The translations under genes and the position numbers were made by a program. A stretch of 64,000 nucleotides of DNA. Origin: Eubacteriales bacterium (GTDB lineage: Bacteria > Bacillota > Clostridia > Oscillospirales > CAG-272). Of the stretch, positions 13,018-60,364 are shown in pieces (position 1 is the stretch's first letter; every line of letters begins with the position of its first letter). The stretch spans positions 594 through 64,593 of the forward strand of contig JAZREL010000076.1 of the NCBI GenBank assembly GCA_045660785.1. Direction: 5' to 3'. The notes under the pieces were generated by a model that was not told where the DNA came from, ran no database searches, and saw only the letters and a list, made by a program, of their open reading frames with translations.

Positions 13018-14109
13018 ATGAAACTTGGTATCGTTGGACTTCCTAACGTAGGAAAAAGCACACTTTTTAATGCACTTACAAATGCAGGCGCACAAAGCGC
13101 AAACTACCCATTCTGCACGATTGAGCCAAACGTTGGCGTTGTTGCCGTGCCTGATTCACGCCTTGATACGCTTGCAAAAATGTATAATCCCGAGCTATAT
13201 ACTCCCGCAGTTATCGAATTTGTTGATATTGCAGGTCTTGTTAAGGGTGCAAGCCGCGGTGAGGGTCTTGGCAATAAGTTCCTTTCACACATAAGAGAGG
13301 TTGATGCGATAGTTCACGTTGTACGTTGCTTTGAAAACAACGATATTATTCACGTTGACGGCTCAATTGACCCAATTCGTGACCTTGAAACTATAAACTT
13401 AGAGCTTATCTTTTCCGATATGGAAATTCTTGAAAGAAGAATAGATAACGTTAAAAAGGCAATGAAGGGTGACAAAACTCTTGCGCCAAAGCTCGACCTT
13501 TATGAGCGCGTTATGAAAACTCTCGAGGACGGAAAAAGCGCACGCTCACTCGACTATACCGAGGAGGAGTCCGCTTGGATTAGCGAGGTTGCACTCCTAA
13601 CAATCAAGCCCGTTATCTATGCGGCAAACATTAGCGAAACCGACCTTGCAAACCTCGAAGCAAACAGCTTCCTTAAAAGAGTTACCGACTTTGCAAAGAG
13701 CGAAAAGAGCGAGGTTATCCCCGTTTGCGCGGAAATCGAGGCAGAAATTGCAGAGCTTGAGGGTGAGGACAAGGAAATGTTCCTTTCAGACCTTGGAATC
13801 AGCGAAAGCGGCCTTGACCGCCTTATCAAGGCAAGCTATTCACTCCTTGGACTTATCAGCTATCTTACAGCAGGACCAAAGGAGGTTCGCGCTTGGACAA
13901 TCACTAAGGGCACAAAAGCACCTGGGGCTGCCGGCAAGATTCACTCCGACTTTGAGCGTGGCTTCATCCGCGCCGAAATCGTTTCCTTTGATGACCTTGT
14001 TGCTTGCGGCTCAATGAACGTTGCCAAGGAAAAGGGCCTTGTTCGCTCCGAGGGTAAGGAATACGTAATCAACGACGGAGATATAGTTCTTTTCAGATTC
14101 AACGTGTAA
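13018..14109 (+). CDS. ychF: Redox-regulated ribosome-binding ATPase YchF
   Basis: 363 aa. [10 protein letters not shown]-loop and a C-terminal TGS-like domain ([19 protein letters not shown]). Confidence 0.96.
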
Positions 14110-19102: not shown

Positions 19103-21319
19103 TTAAAGCTGATCAGGGTCAATGTAGTCAGGGTTGGTTGCAAAGATTTCGTATTCTGAAATCTTGTGTGTTCTTGCATCGTTAGTCCACTTAAGTGACA
19201 AAACTGTGATAACAATCTTTTGCACCTTAATGGGCTGTTGATCCTCAATTGCTTCGAAAACTACAATCTGCTCGCCCTCGGGCTGTCCTGACGTATTGGC
19301 AACAAAGTCTTCGTTTCTGAATACCTCATTTCCGTCAGCGTCGTAGAATACGTGGGATGAGATTGTCCAGTTACCCATTGCGTAACCGTAAACAAGCTGA
19401 ACTTCCATTTCTTCATTAAGTATAATTGTTAAGGATTGACCTTCTGTTGCGAACCATTCGCCCTTATTGTCGCTGTAAATACCGCCTGTTTTCTTAACAC
19501 CGTCAAATAGCGCAGTGGCATATTCCGATCTTTCCGTTGCATAAACCTCGGAAATATTATCAAGTGTTACAAGCTTAGTTGGCTCGTTGTCACCAACTGC
19601 CCATCTTGCATAAACGGTAATATCGCCCGAAAGACCGTCAGTTGTCTTAATTCTTTCTGTCTTCGCCTCGTCCTTGTACCAAGCGATAACGGAGTATTCA
19701 CCTGCATAAGCAGTAACAAACTCAACAGGGTTTACAATGTCGTAGTAAGTTGGGTTGTTGTTTGCAACTACGTAGTTTTCAACCAAATCACCGTAAACGT
19801 AGTTGATTGTGTAGTTTGCAAGTGTAAACTTAGCGTAAGCAACAATGTCTGAAGGATTTTCAGGGTCAATTACTATCTCTGAAATTGGATTTTCCCAAAG
19901 TCCTTCGTAAGGATGGCTTGTGAACCAACCGCCAAATTCGTAGCCGAACTTTGAAAGGGTAGGAAGCACGTATGTGCCTCTGTCGTTAATTGTGTATGAT
20001 GTGATAGCGTCAGATGGCATTGACTCGCCCTCTGTTGCGTATGTAATCTTGTATATAATAAGTGTTGTACGTGCTTCAAGAGTAAGTGAACCCTCGTTTT
20101 CACCTGGAACAAGTGCCTCAAGCTTTGTGTCTGTGCCTTTGATGTACCAACCTGTAAATGCGTAGCCCGTTGTTGAAACGGTAGGAGCAATAAAGGTAAA
20201 TTCTGTTTCAACGGTGTATTCAGAGATGTTGTCATCGCTGTTTGTAAGACCGATAGGCAATTCATAAGTAATCTTGAATGGCAAAATCTTAAATGAGGCA
20301 TAAACTGTAACGTCTTCCTCTGTGCCAAGTGGAATCTTTTCAAAAGGAACTGTAAGCTCCTCGTCCATAAACCAACCAAGGAAGTCGTAGCCGTCGCGTA
20401 TAGGTGTGGAAAGGACTACCTCATCCTCAACGTTAAAGCTTGTTGGGTTGTTGTTTGTGGCATTTCCCATATTAACGTAATTGATGTTGTATCTTACAAG
20501 CTCAAAGTTAGCAACAAGAGTAATGTCACCGAGTAAATTCTTTGTGCTTTCAATCTTTTCGCCGTTAACTGTCCATCCCTCAAAGGTGTAGCCCTCTTTG
20601 GATGGGTCAGCAAATGTCACAACTGACTCAATAGTGTAGGAGTCGGGGTTGGTCTCTGCGTTTGTGCCGCCGTTCAACTCATAGGTGATGGAGTAGTTGG
20701 CAGGAGCCCAAACCGCGTAAAGAGAATTGTACTTGTTAATTCCCATTGTAAAGTCAGCGCCGTCAGCGTAAACCACCTCGCCGCCCATCTTTGTTGCCCA
20801 ACCAAGAAAATCGTAGCCCGTTTTAACGAGTGTGCAAGCGTTAAGCGCTACTGTTGTGTCAGAAGGGATAACAACGGGGTCCATTGTGTTTTCCGCACCG
20901 TTTGGAATGAATGCAAGATTGTTGTTGTTTGGCTTCCAATCAGCAACTATTGTCATATCTGTTGTAATCGCACCGGGTACCCATGATTTGCCCTCGCAAA
21001 GCCAGCCCTTGAATTCGTAACCTGTTTTTGCAGGATTACGTGGGATTCTTCTTACAACGTCGTTGTATTTAACAACCTCGATTACGTCCTCTGTGCCGTT
21101 ATTAAGAACGAAAACAACAGTACACTCCGTTGGTGTAACCGGTTTTTGGTCCTCTGTATCTGTGCTTGTGTCAGAGCTTGTGTCTGTATTTGTGCTTGTG
21201 TCTGCGTTTGTATTTGTGTTGGTGCTTGTGTCGGTATTATCGCCGCCGCAGGAAACAACAAAAATCGCTACAAGAACAAGAAGCACGCAAACAAGCACGC
21301 TTAATAATTTTTTGTTCAT
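19103..21319 (-). CDS. Cell-surface lipoprotein with Listeria-Bacteroides (Flg_new) repeats and a C-terminal beta-sandwich (discoidin-like) domain
   Basis: Signal peptide plus lipobox (VVSCGG), a T/D/N/S-rich linker, at least 5 repeats bearing GY(E/D/T/A)F.GW, and 738 aa in total. Confidence 0.8.
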   Translation of the reverse strand: MNKKLLSVLVCVLLVLVAIFVVSCGGDNTDTSTNTNTNADTSTNTDTSSDTSTDTEDQKPVTPTECTVVFVLNNGTEDVIEVVKYNDVVRRIPRNPAKTGYEFKGWLCEGKSWVPGAITTDMTIVADWKPNNNNLAFIPNGAENTMDPVVIPSDTTVALNACTLVKTGYDFLGWATKMGGEVVYADGADFTMGINKYNSLYAVWAPANYSITYELNGGTNAETNPDSYTIESVVTFADPSKEGYTFEGWTVNGEKIESTKNLLGDITLVANFELVRYNINYVNMGNATNNNPTSFNVEDEVVLSTPIRDGYDFLGWFMDEELTVPFEKIPLGTEEDVTVYASFKILPFKITYELPIGLTNSDDNISEYTVETEFTFIAPTVSTTGYAFTGWYIKGTDTKLEALVPGENEGSLTLEARTTLIIYKITYATEGESMPSDAITSYTINDRGTYVLPTLSKFGYEFGGWFTSHPYEGLWENPISEIVIDPENPSDIVAYAKFTLANYTINYVYGDLVENYVVANNNPTYYDIVNPVEFVTAYAGEYSVIAWYKDEAKTERIKTTDGLSGDITVYARWAVGDNEPTKLVTLDNISEVYATERSEYATALFDGVKKTGGIYSDNKGEWFATEGQSLTIILNEEMEVQLVYGYAMGNWTISSHVFYDADGNEVFRNEDFVANTSGQPEGEQIVVFEAIEDQQPIKVQKIVITVLSLKWTNDARTHKISEYEIFATNPDYIDPDQL

Positions 21320-21353
21320 TTTTGTCCTCCAAAAGATAATAATTTATAATTAT

Positions 21354-21382
21354 ATTATATATTCGCGCCCGCAGTTTGTCAA
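21354..21382 (-). promoter_or_regulatory. Consensus sigma-A promoter (TTGACA-17-TATAAT) for the surface lipoprotein gene
   Basis: Both hexamers are perfect on the minus strand with a 17-nt spacer, about 35 nt upstream of the ATG. Confidence 0.7.
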
Positions 21383-21424
21383 GCAATAATAGAAAATACG
21401 ATAAATTACACATAATAACGTGGG

Positions 21425-21653
21425 GAAATTTGTGCAAAATGCACAATACAAGCGGTGCTTGTAAATGAATTGCGCAAACGCATGAATTGAAGCAGAGCTT
21501 CATGAATTGTCACAAAGCGACATGAATTGCGCCTTTGGTGCATAAATTGAGGCAATACCGCATTGAAGCATCATATGGCGTAGCCAATTCATAATGTGTT
21601 AACGTCAATTTATTAAAATACAGTTTTCAATTTATGTGATTTATCACAATTCA
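21425..21653. repeat. Micro-hairpin array, family 1, locus A (about 11 units; orientation flips at ~21570)
   Basis: CATGAATTG or CATAAATTG recurs at 21481, 21501, 21521 and 21541, an exact 20-nt period. CAATTCAT or CAATTTAT (the reverse complement) recurs at 21585, 21606, 21628 and 21647. The spacers are short palindromes closed by TG...CA. Confidence 0.85.
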
Positions 21654-21654
21654 G

Positions 21655-21686
21655 TAAAAAAGAGCCCACCCCGTGAGCTCTTTTTA
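21655..21686. terminator. Terminator after ruvB (bidirectional shape)
   Basis: agagc-cac/gtg-gctct hairpin flanked by A6 and T5 runs. Confidence 0.65.
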
Positions 21687-21690
21687 CTAT

Positions 21691-22740
21691 TTATCCCTCA
21701 ATTTTCATTTGAGTTGCGCCGCCTTGAAAGGGAAGGCCAAGGTGGTCGTAAGCCAAGCGCGTTACACATCTGCCCTTAGGGGTGCGGCTAAGGAAGCCGA
21801 TTTGCATAAGATACGGCTCGTAAACGTCCTCAATTGTGATTGCTTCCTCGCCGATTGTTGCCGCCAAGGTTTCAAGTCCGACAGGGCCGCCGCCGTAAAA
21901 TTTGATAATGGTTTCAAGAATTTTTCTGTCAATGTTGTCAAGTCCAAGGTCGTCAATTTCAAGTGCCGAAAGTGCCATTTTTGCAATTTCAAGCGTAATT
22001 TTGCCGTCGCCCTTTACCTGCGCGTAGTCGCGTACACGCTTAAGGAGACGGTTTGCAATACGAGGGGTTCCGCGTGAGCGTGAGGCAATTTCCTTTGCGC
22101 CCTCGCTGTCAATTCCAACCTCTAAAAGAGAAGCACTGCGCGTAATAATGGTTGCAAGCTCGTCCGCGTTATAAAGCTCCAAGCGCAAAAGCACGCCAAA
22201 GCGGTCGCGAAGCGGAGTGGTGAGCTGTCCTGCACGTGTCGTTGCACCCACTAAGGTGAAGCGAGGAAGCGGCACACGTACGCTTCTTGCCGCAGGACCC
22301 TTGCCTATAATAATATCAAGCACGTAGTCCTCCATTGCAGGGTAAAGAATTTCCTCAATAGAGCGTGAAAGACGGTGAATTTCGTCGATAAATAAAACGT
22401 CCCCGGGGGCAAGATTGGTTAAAATCGCCGCCAAATCACCCGGCTTTTCAATTGCAGGGCCCGACGTTACTCTGAAATTAACGCCCATTTCGTTTGCAAT
22501 AATGCCCGAAAGCGTTGTCTTACCAAGACCGGGAGGGCCGTAGAGAAGCACGTGGTCAAGCGCGTCGCCTCTGCCCTTAGCCGCGTCAATATAAACCTTA
22601 AGCATTTCCTTGACCTTTTCCTGACCGATGTAGTCCTCAAATGCCTTTGGGCGCAAGCTGACCTCAACCTCGGTGTCCTCGCCCGTCATTTCGGTTGAAA
22701 CTATTCGGTTTTCAAAGTCAAATTCTGTTTCCTCAATCAT
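21691..22740 (-). CDS. ruvB: Holliday junction branch migration helicase RuvB
   Basis: 349 aa. GPPGLGKTT Walker A, DEIHR Walker B, and RuvB-specific C-terminal domains. Confidence 0.97.
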
Positions 22741-27547: not shown

Positions 27548-27689
27548 GCACCTTGCGGTGCGTGAATTGATGCGACGCATCATAAATTGCAACTCTGTTG
27601 CATGAATTGTTTCTGTGAAACATGAATTGTGCTCCGCACATAAATTGCAACCTTGTTGCATGAATTGTCCTTTGGACATTTTATAATTG
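27548..27689 (+). repeat. Micro-hairpin array, family 1, locus B (7 units, all the same orientation)
   Basis: (C/G)(A/G)T(G/A)AATTG recurs at 27561, 27581, 27601, 27621, 27639 and 27659. Every spacer is a 3-4-bp palindrome with a 3-nt loop, closed by TG...CA. Confidence 0.9.
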
Positions 27690-35025: not shown

Positions 35026-35120
35026 CACGTCAACACGTGAATGAATTGCAACCATAAGGTTTCATGAAGCAGCACTATGTAATGAAATTACAATTCATGG
35101 TTTGCAAGCATCAATTCATT
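35026..35120. repeat. Micro-hairpin array, family 1, locus C (shorter, partly degenerate, orientation flips)
   Basis: AATGAATTG at 35040, degenerate CATGAAGC at 35063 and AATGAAATT at 35081, then CAATTCATG at 35091 and CAATTCATT at 35112. The cacgt-caac-acgtg and TGcaacc-ataa-ggtttCA hairpins are visible. Confidence 0.7.
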
Positions 35121-58846: not shown

Positions 58847-58933
58847 GCCGGTGTGATGGAATTGGCAGACGTGCCGGACTCAAAATCCGGTGGTAGAGAT
58901 ATCGTATCGGTTCGACCCCGATCACCGGCACCA
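58847..58933 (+). tRNA. tRNA-Leu (anticodon CAA), encoded CCA
   Basis: Acceptor stem GCCGGTG/CACCGGC, anticodon loop CTCAAAA, a long variable arm, the GGTTCGA T-loop, and a 3' ACCA. Confidence 0.92.
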
Positions 58934-58967: not shown

Positions 58968-58970
58968 TGC

Positions 58971-59082
58971 AATTCGCAAAACGCGAATTGATGATATACA
59001 CCTTTGGTGATGATATGCAAGACTACGCCTTGATGATATACACACGTTCGTGTGGCGATATACAATGCACGCATTGTATAAC
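58971..59082 (+). repeat. Micro-hairpin array, family 2 (5 units; linker (A/G)(T/C)GATAT(A/G); stems closed by CA...TG)
   Basis: GATAT(A/G)C recurs at 58993, 59012, 59035 and 59057. Between the copies lie cacc-ttt-ggtg, caag-actacgc-cttg, cacac-gttc-gtgtg and caatg-cacg-cattg. A 7-bp aattcgc/gcgaatt hairpin leads the array. Confidence 0.85.
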
Positions 59083-59256: not shown

Positions 59257-60276
59257 TTATTCGTAAAAATCTGGAATTTCAACCGCGGAATATCTTGACC
59301 AACCAAGCGCAGGGCGGAAGCCCCAAATTGAATCTCTTGCTTGTCTGTTTGACTTTTCGCTCTTGTCAAAAAGCGTGAGGTTGCTTTCCCATTCAAGGAT
59401 TATCGGCAGGTCGTTTTTCATTGACGAGTCGAGCAAGCGATAGTTAATCTTGTCGCCGTTTTGAACCTCGGAATACAAGCAAACGCGAATTCCCCAACAA
59501 AGGTCAAATGCAGCCGCCTCAACCACCTTGATGCTTCTTGGAATTGCAATAGTGTAGTAGTAGCTTTCGTTTTTATATTGGCTGTTTCCAAACGCCACGC
59601 CAAAATCAGTAAACGCGTTTGTCTTAATTCCAACAACGCTCTTGCCTTGGTATTCGCGCGGCATGTAAACAATCTTCGTTGCATCAACGGGTCTTACAAA
59701 GTCAACACAGTAAAGCTCACCGTTTTCCTCTACGTAAACAAAGCCGTCAGCGTCCGTAATTGTGGTAGGCGCAGGTGGCTCCTCGTTTCCTTCGTCACCG
59801 TCGCCCTCGCCGCCGTTGTCACCGCTATTATCGCCACTGTTGTCACCGCCCTCGTTGCCTGAGCCACCTTGGTTGCCGCTTCCGCCTTGGTCGTCGTCCT
59901 CATTGTCTGAGCCACCTTGGTTCTCGTTTCCACCTTGGTCGTCGTCCTCATTGCCTGAGCCGCCTTGGTTCTCGTTTCCGCCTTGGTCGTCGTCCTCATT
60001 GCCTGAGCCACCTTGGTTCTCGTTTCCGCCTTGGTCGCTGTCCTCATTACCCGAGCCACCCTCGGTGTCAGTGTCTGTTTCGGTGTCGGTAACATCGCCT
60101 GCACCCGTGTCGGTGTCCTTATTTGTGTCGTCCGTGTCGATGTTTGTGTCTGTTTCGTCCGTTTGTGTGCCTTCGCCCGTGTCAATGTAAATGCCACCGC
60201 CCTCGCAAGCGGAGAAGCAAAGCGCCAAAAGAACGGTCAGTGCCAAAAGAATACACAAAAATATATTTCTTTTCAT
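59257..60276 (-). CDS. Lipoprotein with an acidic repeat linker and a C-terminal BspA-type leucine-rich-repeat-like domain
   Basis: Lipobox FSACEGG, a T/D-rich stretch, (GGSGNEDDDQGGNENQ)n repeats, then an IPRSIKVVEAAAF-type LRR segment. The start ATG 60276 lies behind a GAGGA RBS. Confidence 0.75.
   Translation of the reverse strand: MKRNIFLCILLALTVLLALCFSACEGGGIYIDTGEGTQTDETDTNIDTDDTNKDTDTGAGDVTDTETDTDTEGGSGNEDSDQGGNENQGGSGNEDDDQGGNENQGGSGNEDDDQGGNENQGGSDNEDDDQGGSGNQGGSGNEGGDNSGDNSGDNGGEGDGDEGNEEPPAPTTITDADGFVYVEENGELYCVDFVRPVDATKIVYMPREYQGKSVVGIKTNAFTDFGVAFGNSQYKNESYYYTIAIPRSIKVVEAAAFDLCWGIRVCLYSEVQNGDKINYRLLDSSMKNDLPIILEWESNLTLFDKSEKSNRQARDSIWGFRPALGWSRYSAVEIPDFYE
59885..60076. repeat. 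In-frame 48-bp tandem repeat, about 4 copies
   Basis: ccttggtcg(t/c)(c/t)gtcctcatt starts at 59885, 59933, 59981 and 60029, an exact 48-nt period. It encodes the 16-aa G/N/E/D/Q repeat. Confidence 0.9.
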
Positions 60277-60364
60277 AAATTCCTCTAAAAAAATGATATA
60301 TTTCGATTTTATCATAAATAGTTCATTTTTGCAATACAATAAGCAAAATTGCGAAAAATTTCTA

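Follow-up and report, generated by a model that had tools for sequence, protein, structure and literature searches.

A hairpin array between ruvB and a lipoprotein gene is probably a diverged solo copy of a dispersed, Gut-1-like repeat of gut and rumen Clostridia

A hairpin array in the gap between ruvB and a lipoprotein gene

We analysed a stretch of 64,000 nt from an Eubacteriales bacterium of the CAG-272 lineage (assembly GCA_045660785.1, contig JAZREL010000076.1, positions 594–64,593; hereafter, the window), in which an earlier note, made from the letters alone, had singled out an array of very short hairpins. This array, designated locus A, sits in a 370-nt gap bordered by two minus-strand genes, ruvB and a gene for a lipoprotein. 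The gap and its borders contain the following features, where linkers are the short, nearly invariant words that separate successive hairpins.

19103–21319, minus: lipoprotein gene, 738 aa, with signal peptide ...VVSCGG
21354–21382, minus: lipoprotein promoter, TTGACA-17-TATAAT, 12/12 consensus matches; the same promoter occurs in relatives without the element
21430–21446, no strand: native flank palindrome ttgtgcaaaatgcacaa, not part of the element; kept as ttgtgcaagttgtacaa in relative L132 and as ttgtgcaaaatgcacaa in relative L134
21448–21462, plus: hairpin P0, acaagc-ggt-gcttgt, followed by AAA and the first linker; it corresponds in place and shape to the P0 found before AA TGAATTG in family members
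21449–21656, plus as sense strand: whole inserted element, 208 nt, a probable diverged solo copy of the TGAATTG-type composite hairpin-array repeat, delimited by the blastn break against L132, scoring 70.6 bits with nhmmer and alignable with 24 copies
21466–21549, plus: forward half, with linkers T[GA]AATTG starting at 21466, 21483, 21503, 21523 and 21543
21471–21482, 21488–21502, 21508–21522 and 21528–21542, plus: forward hairpins H1–H4, which align to H1–H4 of the family
21550–21575, plus: degenerate centre, in which the family's NGGCAATTCAATTCATG + H5 is largely deleted (gap in the window row of alignment A1, columns 148–190)
21576–21653, plus: inverted half, with linkers CAATT[CT]A starting at 21585, 21606, 21628 and 21647
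21576–21586, 21592–21607, 21613–21629 and 21635–21648, plus: inverted hairpins, the first of them (TGGC-GTA-GCCA) being the GCGNAGC-type H6 of the family
21657–21685, minus: terminator of ruvB, a hairpin (inverted repeat I3, 13 nt, 92% complementary) that has T-runs on both strands and is abutted by the inserted element
21691–22740, minus: ruvB

The perfect promoter (minus strand, 21382..21354) and the ruvB terminator (the inverted repeat at 21657–21685) are both present as the earlier note had claimed, and its linker positions are all correct. Four of these linkers (21483, 21503, 21523 and 21543) follow an exact 20-nt period, and five forward linkers are followed by four inverted ones with paired hairpins between them, so that two sub-arrays do face each other. 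The count of about seven forward and four inverted units, however, stands only for the inverted side, whose last two units are surplus to the family consensus; the forward side consists of P0, four good hairpins and a broken centre. The palindrome taken as its first unit (21430–21446) is native flank, present in L132 and L134, which both lack the array. The next, caagc-ggt-gcttg, is indeed a hairpin, although not a linker-bounded unit: it is the P0 of the element, and may be partly native, with gcttgt found at the same position in L134. The unit TGaggc-aat-accgCA is a degenerate remnant of the centre rather than a supported hairpin.

The array is real and exceeds chance expectation. Hairpins H1–H4 contain 4, 6, 4 and 5 (plus one G·T) Watson-Crick pairs, with shuffle P values of 0.005–0.07 each. 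The earlier note had proposed a comparison with shuffled sequence; over the seven inter-linker segments of locus A, we counted 33 Watson-Crick pairs against 15.2 ± 2.2 when the interiors were shuffled, a value reached in 0/5000 shuffles, indicating that pairing is well above chance. Likewise, a second array of the window, locus B, has 29 pairs against 13.0 ± 2.0 (0/5000). The 8-mer ATGAATTG occurs 13 times in the window, compared with an expectation of 3.74 ± 1.83 (13 was reached in 0/100 shuffles), and its copies are concentrated at three loci, A, B (27.6 kb) and C (35.1 kb). An nhmmer profile built from 24 copies of the family described below matches locus A on the plus strand with 70.6 bits (E 4.7e-20, model positions 22–192 of 196), and on the minus strand with 41.3 bits. 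The region is AT-rich and its hairpins are short, as chance palindromes would be, but the shuffles, the enrichment and clustering of the linker word and the profile match refute that explanation, leaving it a negligible probability. Whole-element thermodynamic z-scores of the window copy are weak (−1.4 for the plus-strand fold, and −2.6), and the pairing test at the level of modules is more informative here.

Empty sites in close relatives

The RuvB of the window had no exact counterpart in the assembly index, and relatives of the strain were found through RuvB homologues, which put the organism among uncultured gut or rumen Clostridia (Oscillospirales-like metagenome-assembled genomes). Those with 93–96% identical RuvB keep the gene order, and arrays are absent in most of them. 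For instance, in L005–L007 the ruvB terminator runs straight into the same TTGACA-17-TATAAT promoter and, in the closest relative (L132/L133, ~86% nucleotide identity), terminator and promoter are adjacent without an element. Alignment with L132 by blastn breaks at window positions 21448/21657, which lie 5 nt apart in L132, and the insert is therefore 21449–21656. No target-site duplication is visible between filled and empty sites, where 86% identity resolves the junction only to a few nucleotides. A metagenome scan for the ruvB terminator of this strain gave 0 matches.

Locus L134 contains an unrelated, GC-rich insert of ~240 nt (L134 4290–4570) exactly at the site of the window's array, without a match in the window or in L009, indicating that this post-terminator site takes up foreign DNA repeatedly. 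Locus B varies in a similar way, because the gap between the methyltransferase gene and ecfA that contains it measures 3–21 nt in L005–L007 and 155 nt in the window, and the number of modules goes from 0 through 2 (degenerate, in L132) to 6 in the window. As judged from these alignments, the window copy inserted after the split from the closest available relative. Beside the lipoprotein gene orthologous to that of locus A, L005 also carries an IS200-type Y1 transposase gene (13478–13948), which is unrelated to arrays, none being present in that locus.

A dispersed family of composite hairpin arrays

We define here a family, the TGAATTG-type composite hairpin-array element, to which locus A belongs. 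A three-linker pattern scan over species-representative genomes, one per species, found at least 119 stretches carrying the motif. Among the matches listed, genuine copies are nearly all in metagenome-assembled genomes of gut and rumen Clostridia, including Acutalibacteraceae, Oscillospiraceae, Christensenellales and Ruminococcus. A dozen of the listed matches from outside the Clostridia (Bacteroidota, Collimonas, a cyanobacterium) were excluded as identical simple tandem repeats in which the linker word arises by chance. Such unrelated repeats with the 7-mer linker word, for instance (TGAATTGCCTCGGGCTTCA)n in Chitinophagaceae, were seen in L022, L064 (Ferruginibacter), L087 and L039; they consist of identical units without variable hairpins and are a different phenomenon. 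Viral contigs contain only 8 stretches, with no sign of a phage origin.

The intact element measures ~170 nt and comprises the P0 hairpin, about four forward modules, a centre, and three or four inverted modules. Each forward module is a CATGAATTG linker plus a hairpin of 4–6 bp with a 3–4-nt loop, whereas inverted modules carry CAATTCATG linkers. From 24 copies aligned with the window copy, the consensus of the 5′ part reads P0, AA, [TGAATTG + H1], [CA TGAATTG + H2], [H3], [H4], and that of the 3′ part AU...NGG CAATTCA ATTCATG, H5, (C/A)AAWTCATG, H6, CAATTCATG, H7, CAATTCAT. The commonest layout among the matches listed is '++++----', and genomes agree in which hairpins occur and in what order. 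The reverse strand of the element also reads as forward modules followed by inverted modules.

Intact copies score 120–139 bits on the 24-copy profile. Compared with the consensus, the window copy has H1–H4 intact, H6 as TGGC-GTA-GCCA and two added inverted modules, but it is incomplete, because its centre, NGGCAATTCAATTCATG + H5, is mostly gone; there is no partner for TGAATTGCGCAA and, consequently, the long-range helix P1, which the first linker and the 5′ arm of H1 form with the centre, cannot form.

The element occurs in dozens of unrelated contexts, including the inside of operons and 3′ untranslated regions. Single modules or three-module blocks are duplicated in tandem in L102, L120, L126 and L128. 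We also observed direct duplicates of whole elements, either on both sides of a four-helix-bundle gene (L157, 2316–2486 and 2888–3061) or in tandem (L155, 1–163 and 169–347; L126, 1887–2252).

Hairpins covary and are under selection

Of 468 modules, 92% have at least four Watson-Crick pairs, compared with 14.6% after shuffling, and their loops are mostly of 3 nt (233 modules) or 4 nt (170). In alignment A1, 88% of the cells pair, against 72% in column shuffles and at most 46% when the partners are slid, and compensatory changes affect 24 of 38 pairs, in 136 cells compared with an expected 44.5 ± 5.4. These results demonstrate that the family exists, that its hairpins covary and that they are under selection. 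Pairing in P1 reaches 91.5%, four of its pairs show compensatory changes and, at one column, its pairing is better than that of the local H1 with which it competes; a P1 that encloses H2–H4 is the minimum-free-energy fold of one intact leader. In a conceivable full rod of stacked four-way junctions, each forward linker would pair with an inverted one; since the linkers are invariant, covariation among long-range pairings is seen for P1 only.

In L024, L059, L060, L068, L085 and L128, where a gene for a rumA-type 23S rRNA methyltransferase lies upstream, P0 is made from the last ~10 codons of this gene and covaries with them (for example, L059 1940–1997). At the conserved VE(S/T)V codons of rumA, synonymous changes are compensated in the 3′ arm of P0, rewriting the C-terminal tail (KLIRQ, QLFRQ, LLSRQ). 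The tail of the protein thus appears to be constrained by the P0 hairpin.

When the linker is read as CAATTCA, the loops are strongly of the GNA/GNNA type (GAA 50, GCA 47, GTCA 20, GTTA 16, GTAA 12, GTA 12, GCAA 10), and include GCGAAGC. The window copy departs from this pattern, its loops being mostly A/T-rich (AAA, AGA, TTT, TTTA); the only one of family type is in GCGTAGC, at 21578–21584.

A hint in the earlier note, that a single G-T pair would suit G·U pairing if the plus strand were the RNA, proved sound: plus is the sense strand by profile score, and on the sense strand G·U exceeds A·C by 13 to 3 across the family. The view that the array lies outside the neighbouring mRNAs is also upheld; it is outside the predicted transcripts and antisense to both neighbours.

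The array could also be an independent small-RNA gene, the class in which Rfam places the Gut-1 RNA motif; its plus-strand transcript would start at a promoter within the upstream region of the lipoprotein gene and end at the bidirectional ruvB terminator. The plus strand has a TTGTCC-17-TATAAT match at 21322–21350 and a hairpin with a T-run at 21657–21690, plus is also the element's sense strand, and some copies of the family lie just after TGnTATAAT motifs (L049, L126, L157). However, promoter-like matches around the array occur at the chance rate for an AT-rich stretch (2 found, 1.9 expected), and the one at 21322–21350 is not within the insert, being simply the region of the lipoprotein ribosome-binding site read on the opposite strand. 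Lack of a centre and P1, and a plus-strand fold that is not unusually stable (z = −1.4), also speak against a small-RNA gene at this locus, which we regard as improbable.

Alternatively, the earlier note had left open that the array works locally on the DNA, as AATT-rich linkers phased along the helix, as curvature or as an array of protein sites that would modulate the lipoprotein promoter. The exact 20-nt period of four linkers and the consensus promoter downstream would fit such a role. Nevertheless, L132/L133 and L005–L007 keep the terminator, the promoter and the gene without the array, the insert ends ~67 nt from the −35 box and not ~45 nt as first stated, and the same element recurs in the dozens of unrelated contexts mentioned above. 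Moreover, binding to double-stranded DNA does not explain the compensatory changes in the stems. It is the family, a composite repeat dispersed over many genomes, and not this locus that accounts for the form of the array, and a modulator of this promoter is highly improbable.

Intact elements precede genes for four-helix-bundle proteins

All-against-all clustering of the 248 open reading frames (ORFs) beside arrays, from the matches listed, yielded only two recurrent families. The first comprises four-helix-bundle (Avd-like) proteins of PF05635/TIGR02436, found at 9 loci in the clustering and in 10 adjacent cases when a partial gene is counted, and the second, rumA-type methyltransferases, encoded upstream of six of the four-helix-bundle loci. 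In 10/10 adjacent cases from the listed matches of the pattern scan, the element is in sense orientation and ends just 5′ of the ribosome-binding site. Likewise, 17/17 loci fetched through close protein homologues have a full element directly upstream and in sense, with contig-internal copies scoring 121–130 bits. Intact copies are thus found directly before the ribosome-binding site of PF05635 (Avd-like) genes, and their orientation is constant.

One protein of 117 aa is found, identical and with its leader, in five or more gene contexts that are unrelated to one another, defence-like genes being frequent neighbours, and the homology between these identical cassettes extends from ~25 nt 5′ of P0 to ~45 nt 3′ of the stop codon. 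The neighbours of the cassettes in L143–L147, L151 and L152 are often of defence-island type (DUF4379, AbiTii, Fic, DUF559 and zinc-ribbon proteins). Contigs carrying four-helix-bundle genes are mostly shorter than 2 kb, as expected for a multi-copy repeat that breaks assemblies.

A second clade of these proteins (clade B, 38–42% identity) has leaders of the same architecture with different linkers, TATATCATCA in the forward and TGATGATATA in the inverted modules, and with their own covarying P1, AAGCCGACAG:CTGTCGGCTT in one locus and AAGTCGCAG:CTGCGACTT in another. In the 26 leaders checked, TGAATTG-type (clade A) and TATATCATCA-type (clade B) linkers are never mixed, indicating that linker and protein co-vary.

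No gene for a four-helix-bundle protein was found by tblastn in the 64-kb window, so that none lies within ~20–30 nt of the last inverted linker of locus A, and the window copy is solo. The 248 neighbouring ORFs include no recurrent enzyme gene, and tblastn with a Y1 protein (PF01797) found no Y1/RAYT transposase in the array loci.

Other arrays in the window

Besides locus A, the window contains three arrays of this kind.

27548–27678, plus: locus B, a P0 hairpin and six modules, all forward, located in the gap that separates the methyltransferase gene from ecfA and oriented in sense with the operon
35041–35119, plus: locus C, a short degenerate copy with one forward and two inverted linkers, between the stop codon of a clpC-like gene and its terminator
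58970–59076, plus: relic of a sister family, with the hairpin caattcgc-aaaa-gcgaattg and then four inverted modules with TGATGATATAC-type linkers, after a tRNA (58847–58930) and its terminator

Locus C falls below the nhmmer reporting threshold and is only a probable member of the family. The relic at 58970–59076 matches, in layout and position, the inverted half of clade-B leaders (L041 and L160–L167); no four-helix-bundle gene follows it in the window.

Two repeats in coding regions were also observed. The lipoprotein gene adjoining locus A contains a T/D/S-rich repeat with a period of 30/12 nt at 21153–21238. A second predicted lipoprotein (minus-strand ORF, 59257–60339) has a similar feature, a 48-nt tandem repeat at 59850–60101 (4.4 copies, 91% matches) that encodes a GGNENQGGSGNEDDDQ-type repeat.

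Interpretation

Together, these results lead us to favour, with a probability of roughly 70%, the joint explanation that 21449–21656 represents, as a diverged solo copy, a modular repeat dispersed among gut and rumen Clostridia, that the intact form of this repeat is the leader of a four-helix-bundle gene and that the copy in the window is an inert relic. The window copy most likely has no role in the expression of ruvB or the lipoprotein gene: its centre and P1 are missing, no predicted transcript covers it, it is antisense to both neighbours, the nearest relatives do not have it, and the 64 kb contain no four-helix-bundle gene. Given that it is a copy of a dispersed repeat whose intact forms are leaders of four-helix-bundle genes, control of the neighbouring promoter by the element is very unlikely. 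Locus A should accordingly be treated as an insertion that relatives do without, and no regulatory role towards ruvB or the lipoprotein promoter should be assigned to it.

The working form of the element would be a folded single strand, most likely an RNA leader of the four-helix-bundle mRNA. An RNA leader is favoured because gene-linked copies are always in sense and abut the ribosome-binding site, because of the excess of G·U pairs and because codons of rumA form P0. The cognate protein, an oligomer, may recognise the single-stranded linkers displayed between hairpins, either to regulate its own expression or for assembly. Solo copies might arise when the leader alone spreads, by a DNA-level route, and arrays could lengthen or shorten through slippage between the 9-nt linkers.

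Several observations weigh against parts of this interpretation. The GNA/GNNA bias of the loops tracks the orientation of the linker and not the sense strand or the direction of transcription, and on the sense strand the loops of forward modules are the complements of these, a feature left unexplained if only RNA is considered. GCGAAGC, one of the sequences recovered, is a classic and very stable DNA mini-hairpin. In co-directional contexts, full elements are 12 sense to 6 antisense, a ratio that becomes 6:6 without the gene-linked loci, and one-directional arrays are 26 sense to 21 antisense; this lack of orientation bias in solo copies is more in keeping with an element that moves as DNA than with one acting in cis within an mRNA. 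The mobilising enzyme was not found near arrays, and it is solely the co-variation between protein clade and linker that points to the putative recognition of RNA by the protein. Finally, the hairpins of the window copy are still well paired although their stems depart from the family consensus, which could mean continued or residual selection, or a genome-specific subfamily, and not decay.

Some of these observations would be expected if the working form were single-stranded or cruciform DNA. The modules would then be DNA mini-hairpins with a GNA/GNNA loop beside a CAATTCATG site, spread by a DNA enzyme such as an HUH-type nuclease/transposase or a recombinase, and the window copy would be a non-autonomous insertion resembling a miniature inverted-repeat transposable element (MITE). 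There is precedent in the RAYT enzyme, which recognises and spreads repetitive extragenic palindromes (REPs) and the bacterial interspersed mosaic elements (BIMEs) that they compose. Apart from the loop bias and the orientation of solo copies, such a form would agree with the patchy presence of copies in close relatives, with their position directly after terminator T-runs, with near-identical cassettes in at least five different contexts and with the fact that either strand reads as forward and then inverted modules. Conversely, no Y1/HUH transposase was found near any array, nor is there a recurrent enzyme among the neighbouring ORFs or a visible target-site duplication between empty and filled sites. 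The constant sense orientation of gene-linked copies, ending at the ribosome-binding site, the 13 to 3 excess of G·U over A·C on the sense strand and the scarcity of the element in viral contigs argue in the same direction. On balance we consider a DNA working form unlikely, and retain the RNA leader as the preferred one.

Beyond the window, we tentatively propose that Gut-1-like arrays and PF05635 proteins might constitute a previously unrecognised mobile RNA (or single-stranded DNA)-protein cassette system of gut Clostridia, in which the linker would act as a recognition code, TGAATTG for clade A and TATATCATCA for clade B; the odds are somewhat against a proposal this broad. If it were true, solo arrays, including the four in the window, would be dispersed binding sites or relics, and both the orphan Gut-1 motif and the Avd-like proteins that do not belong to retroelements would acquire a function.

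Comparison with known systems

REP/BIME sequences of Enterobacteria and Pseudomonas, mobilised by RAYT, and the BOX elements of Streptococcus pneumoniae resemble the family in being clustered, short extragenic palindromes that occur in both orientations and with variable numbers of units. They are also found after terminators or between the genes of operons, are patchy among close relatives and reach many copies per genome. In REPs, however, the sequence of the stem is conserved, whereas here the stems are highly variable and the linkers invariant, and the family lacks the conserved palindromic unit with a 5′ tetranucleotide that defines REP/BIME. In addition, the gene associated here encodes a non-enzymatic four-helix-bundle protein instead of RAYT, and no Y1/RAYT gene was found near the arrays. 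With regard to classical MITEs, which have terminal inverted repeats and a target-site duplication, inverted linkers are present here, but no target duplication is visible at a junction that 86% identity resolves only to a few nucleotides.

CsrB/RsmZ-type RNAs offer a functional analogy only, because they too display many short single-stranded motifs among hairpins, suited to an oligomeric protein. They differ from the family in motif, protein and taxon, and binding is putative in our case.

The gene downstream of intact elements belongs to the Avd/23S-rRNA-intervening-sequence protein family (PF05635, TIGR02436). The partners of Avd in diversity-generating retroelements are a structured RNA and a reverse transcriptase. 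Unlike in these retroelements, there is no reverse transcriptase and there are no template or variable repeats beside the cassettes. The literature that we searched on Avd, four-helix-bundle and PF05635 proteins describes no hairpin-array leader, and a search with the linker words returned only papers with miR-424 primers.

The closest known relative is the Gut-1 RNA motif (Rfam RF01706), which was described solely from metagenomes of the human gut and regarded as a probable non-coding RNA, without an assigned function (Weinberg et al. 2010, PMC2864571). Our literature search on Gut-1 yielded that paper only, in which no function, gene association or host is assigned. Gut-1 shares with the family the tandem mini-hairpins of 4–7 bp, an invariant linker of the form purine-UGA-A/U-rich and an origin in uncultured gut bacteria. 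Moreover, although the Rfam model spans three forward hairpins only, the published Stockholm rows show the same full architecture, with linkers GUGAAAU/GUGAUAU, an equivalent of P1 and an inverted half. In row BAAZ01000095, for example, the first linker pairs with the centre (AUAUUCGCC:GGCGAAUAU), and three forward GUGAUAUUG modules are followed by inverted AAUAUCAC modules. One difference is the linker, which is AUGAAUUG in the family and not GUGAAAU/GUGAUAU; the architecture is identical.

A search of the window and 18 loci against Rfam at gathering thresholds returned tRNAs only, and no copy reaches the 50-bit gathering score of Gut-1. The window copy matches Gut-1 neither at this score nor at E ≤ 5 over 21300–21720, and the best copy of the family, the forward half of L068, scores 33.7 bits (E 4.5e-5). 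In L090, one contig carries both a TGAATTG array and a genuine GUGAAAU-linker array, and a GUGAAAU-linker array matches Gut-1 at 42.1 bits.

These comparisons take an orphan motif that has lacked an explanation since 2010 beyond its three hairpins, to a complete composite architecture that includes a long-range helix supported by covariation, and indicate that the Gut-1-like motif behaves as a dispersed, patchily distributed repeat. They also link it to one particular gene family, which encodes Avd-like four-helix-bundle proteins (PF05635) whose clades co-vary with the linker. The function of Gut-1 and that of four-helix-bundle proteins outside diversity-generating retroelements thereby become one question.

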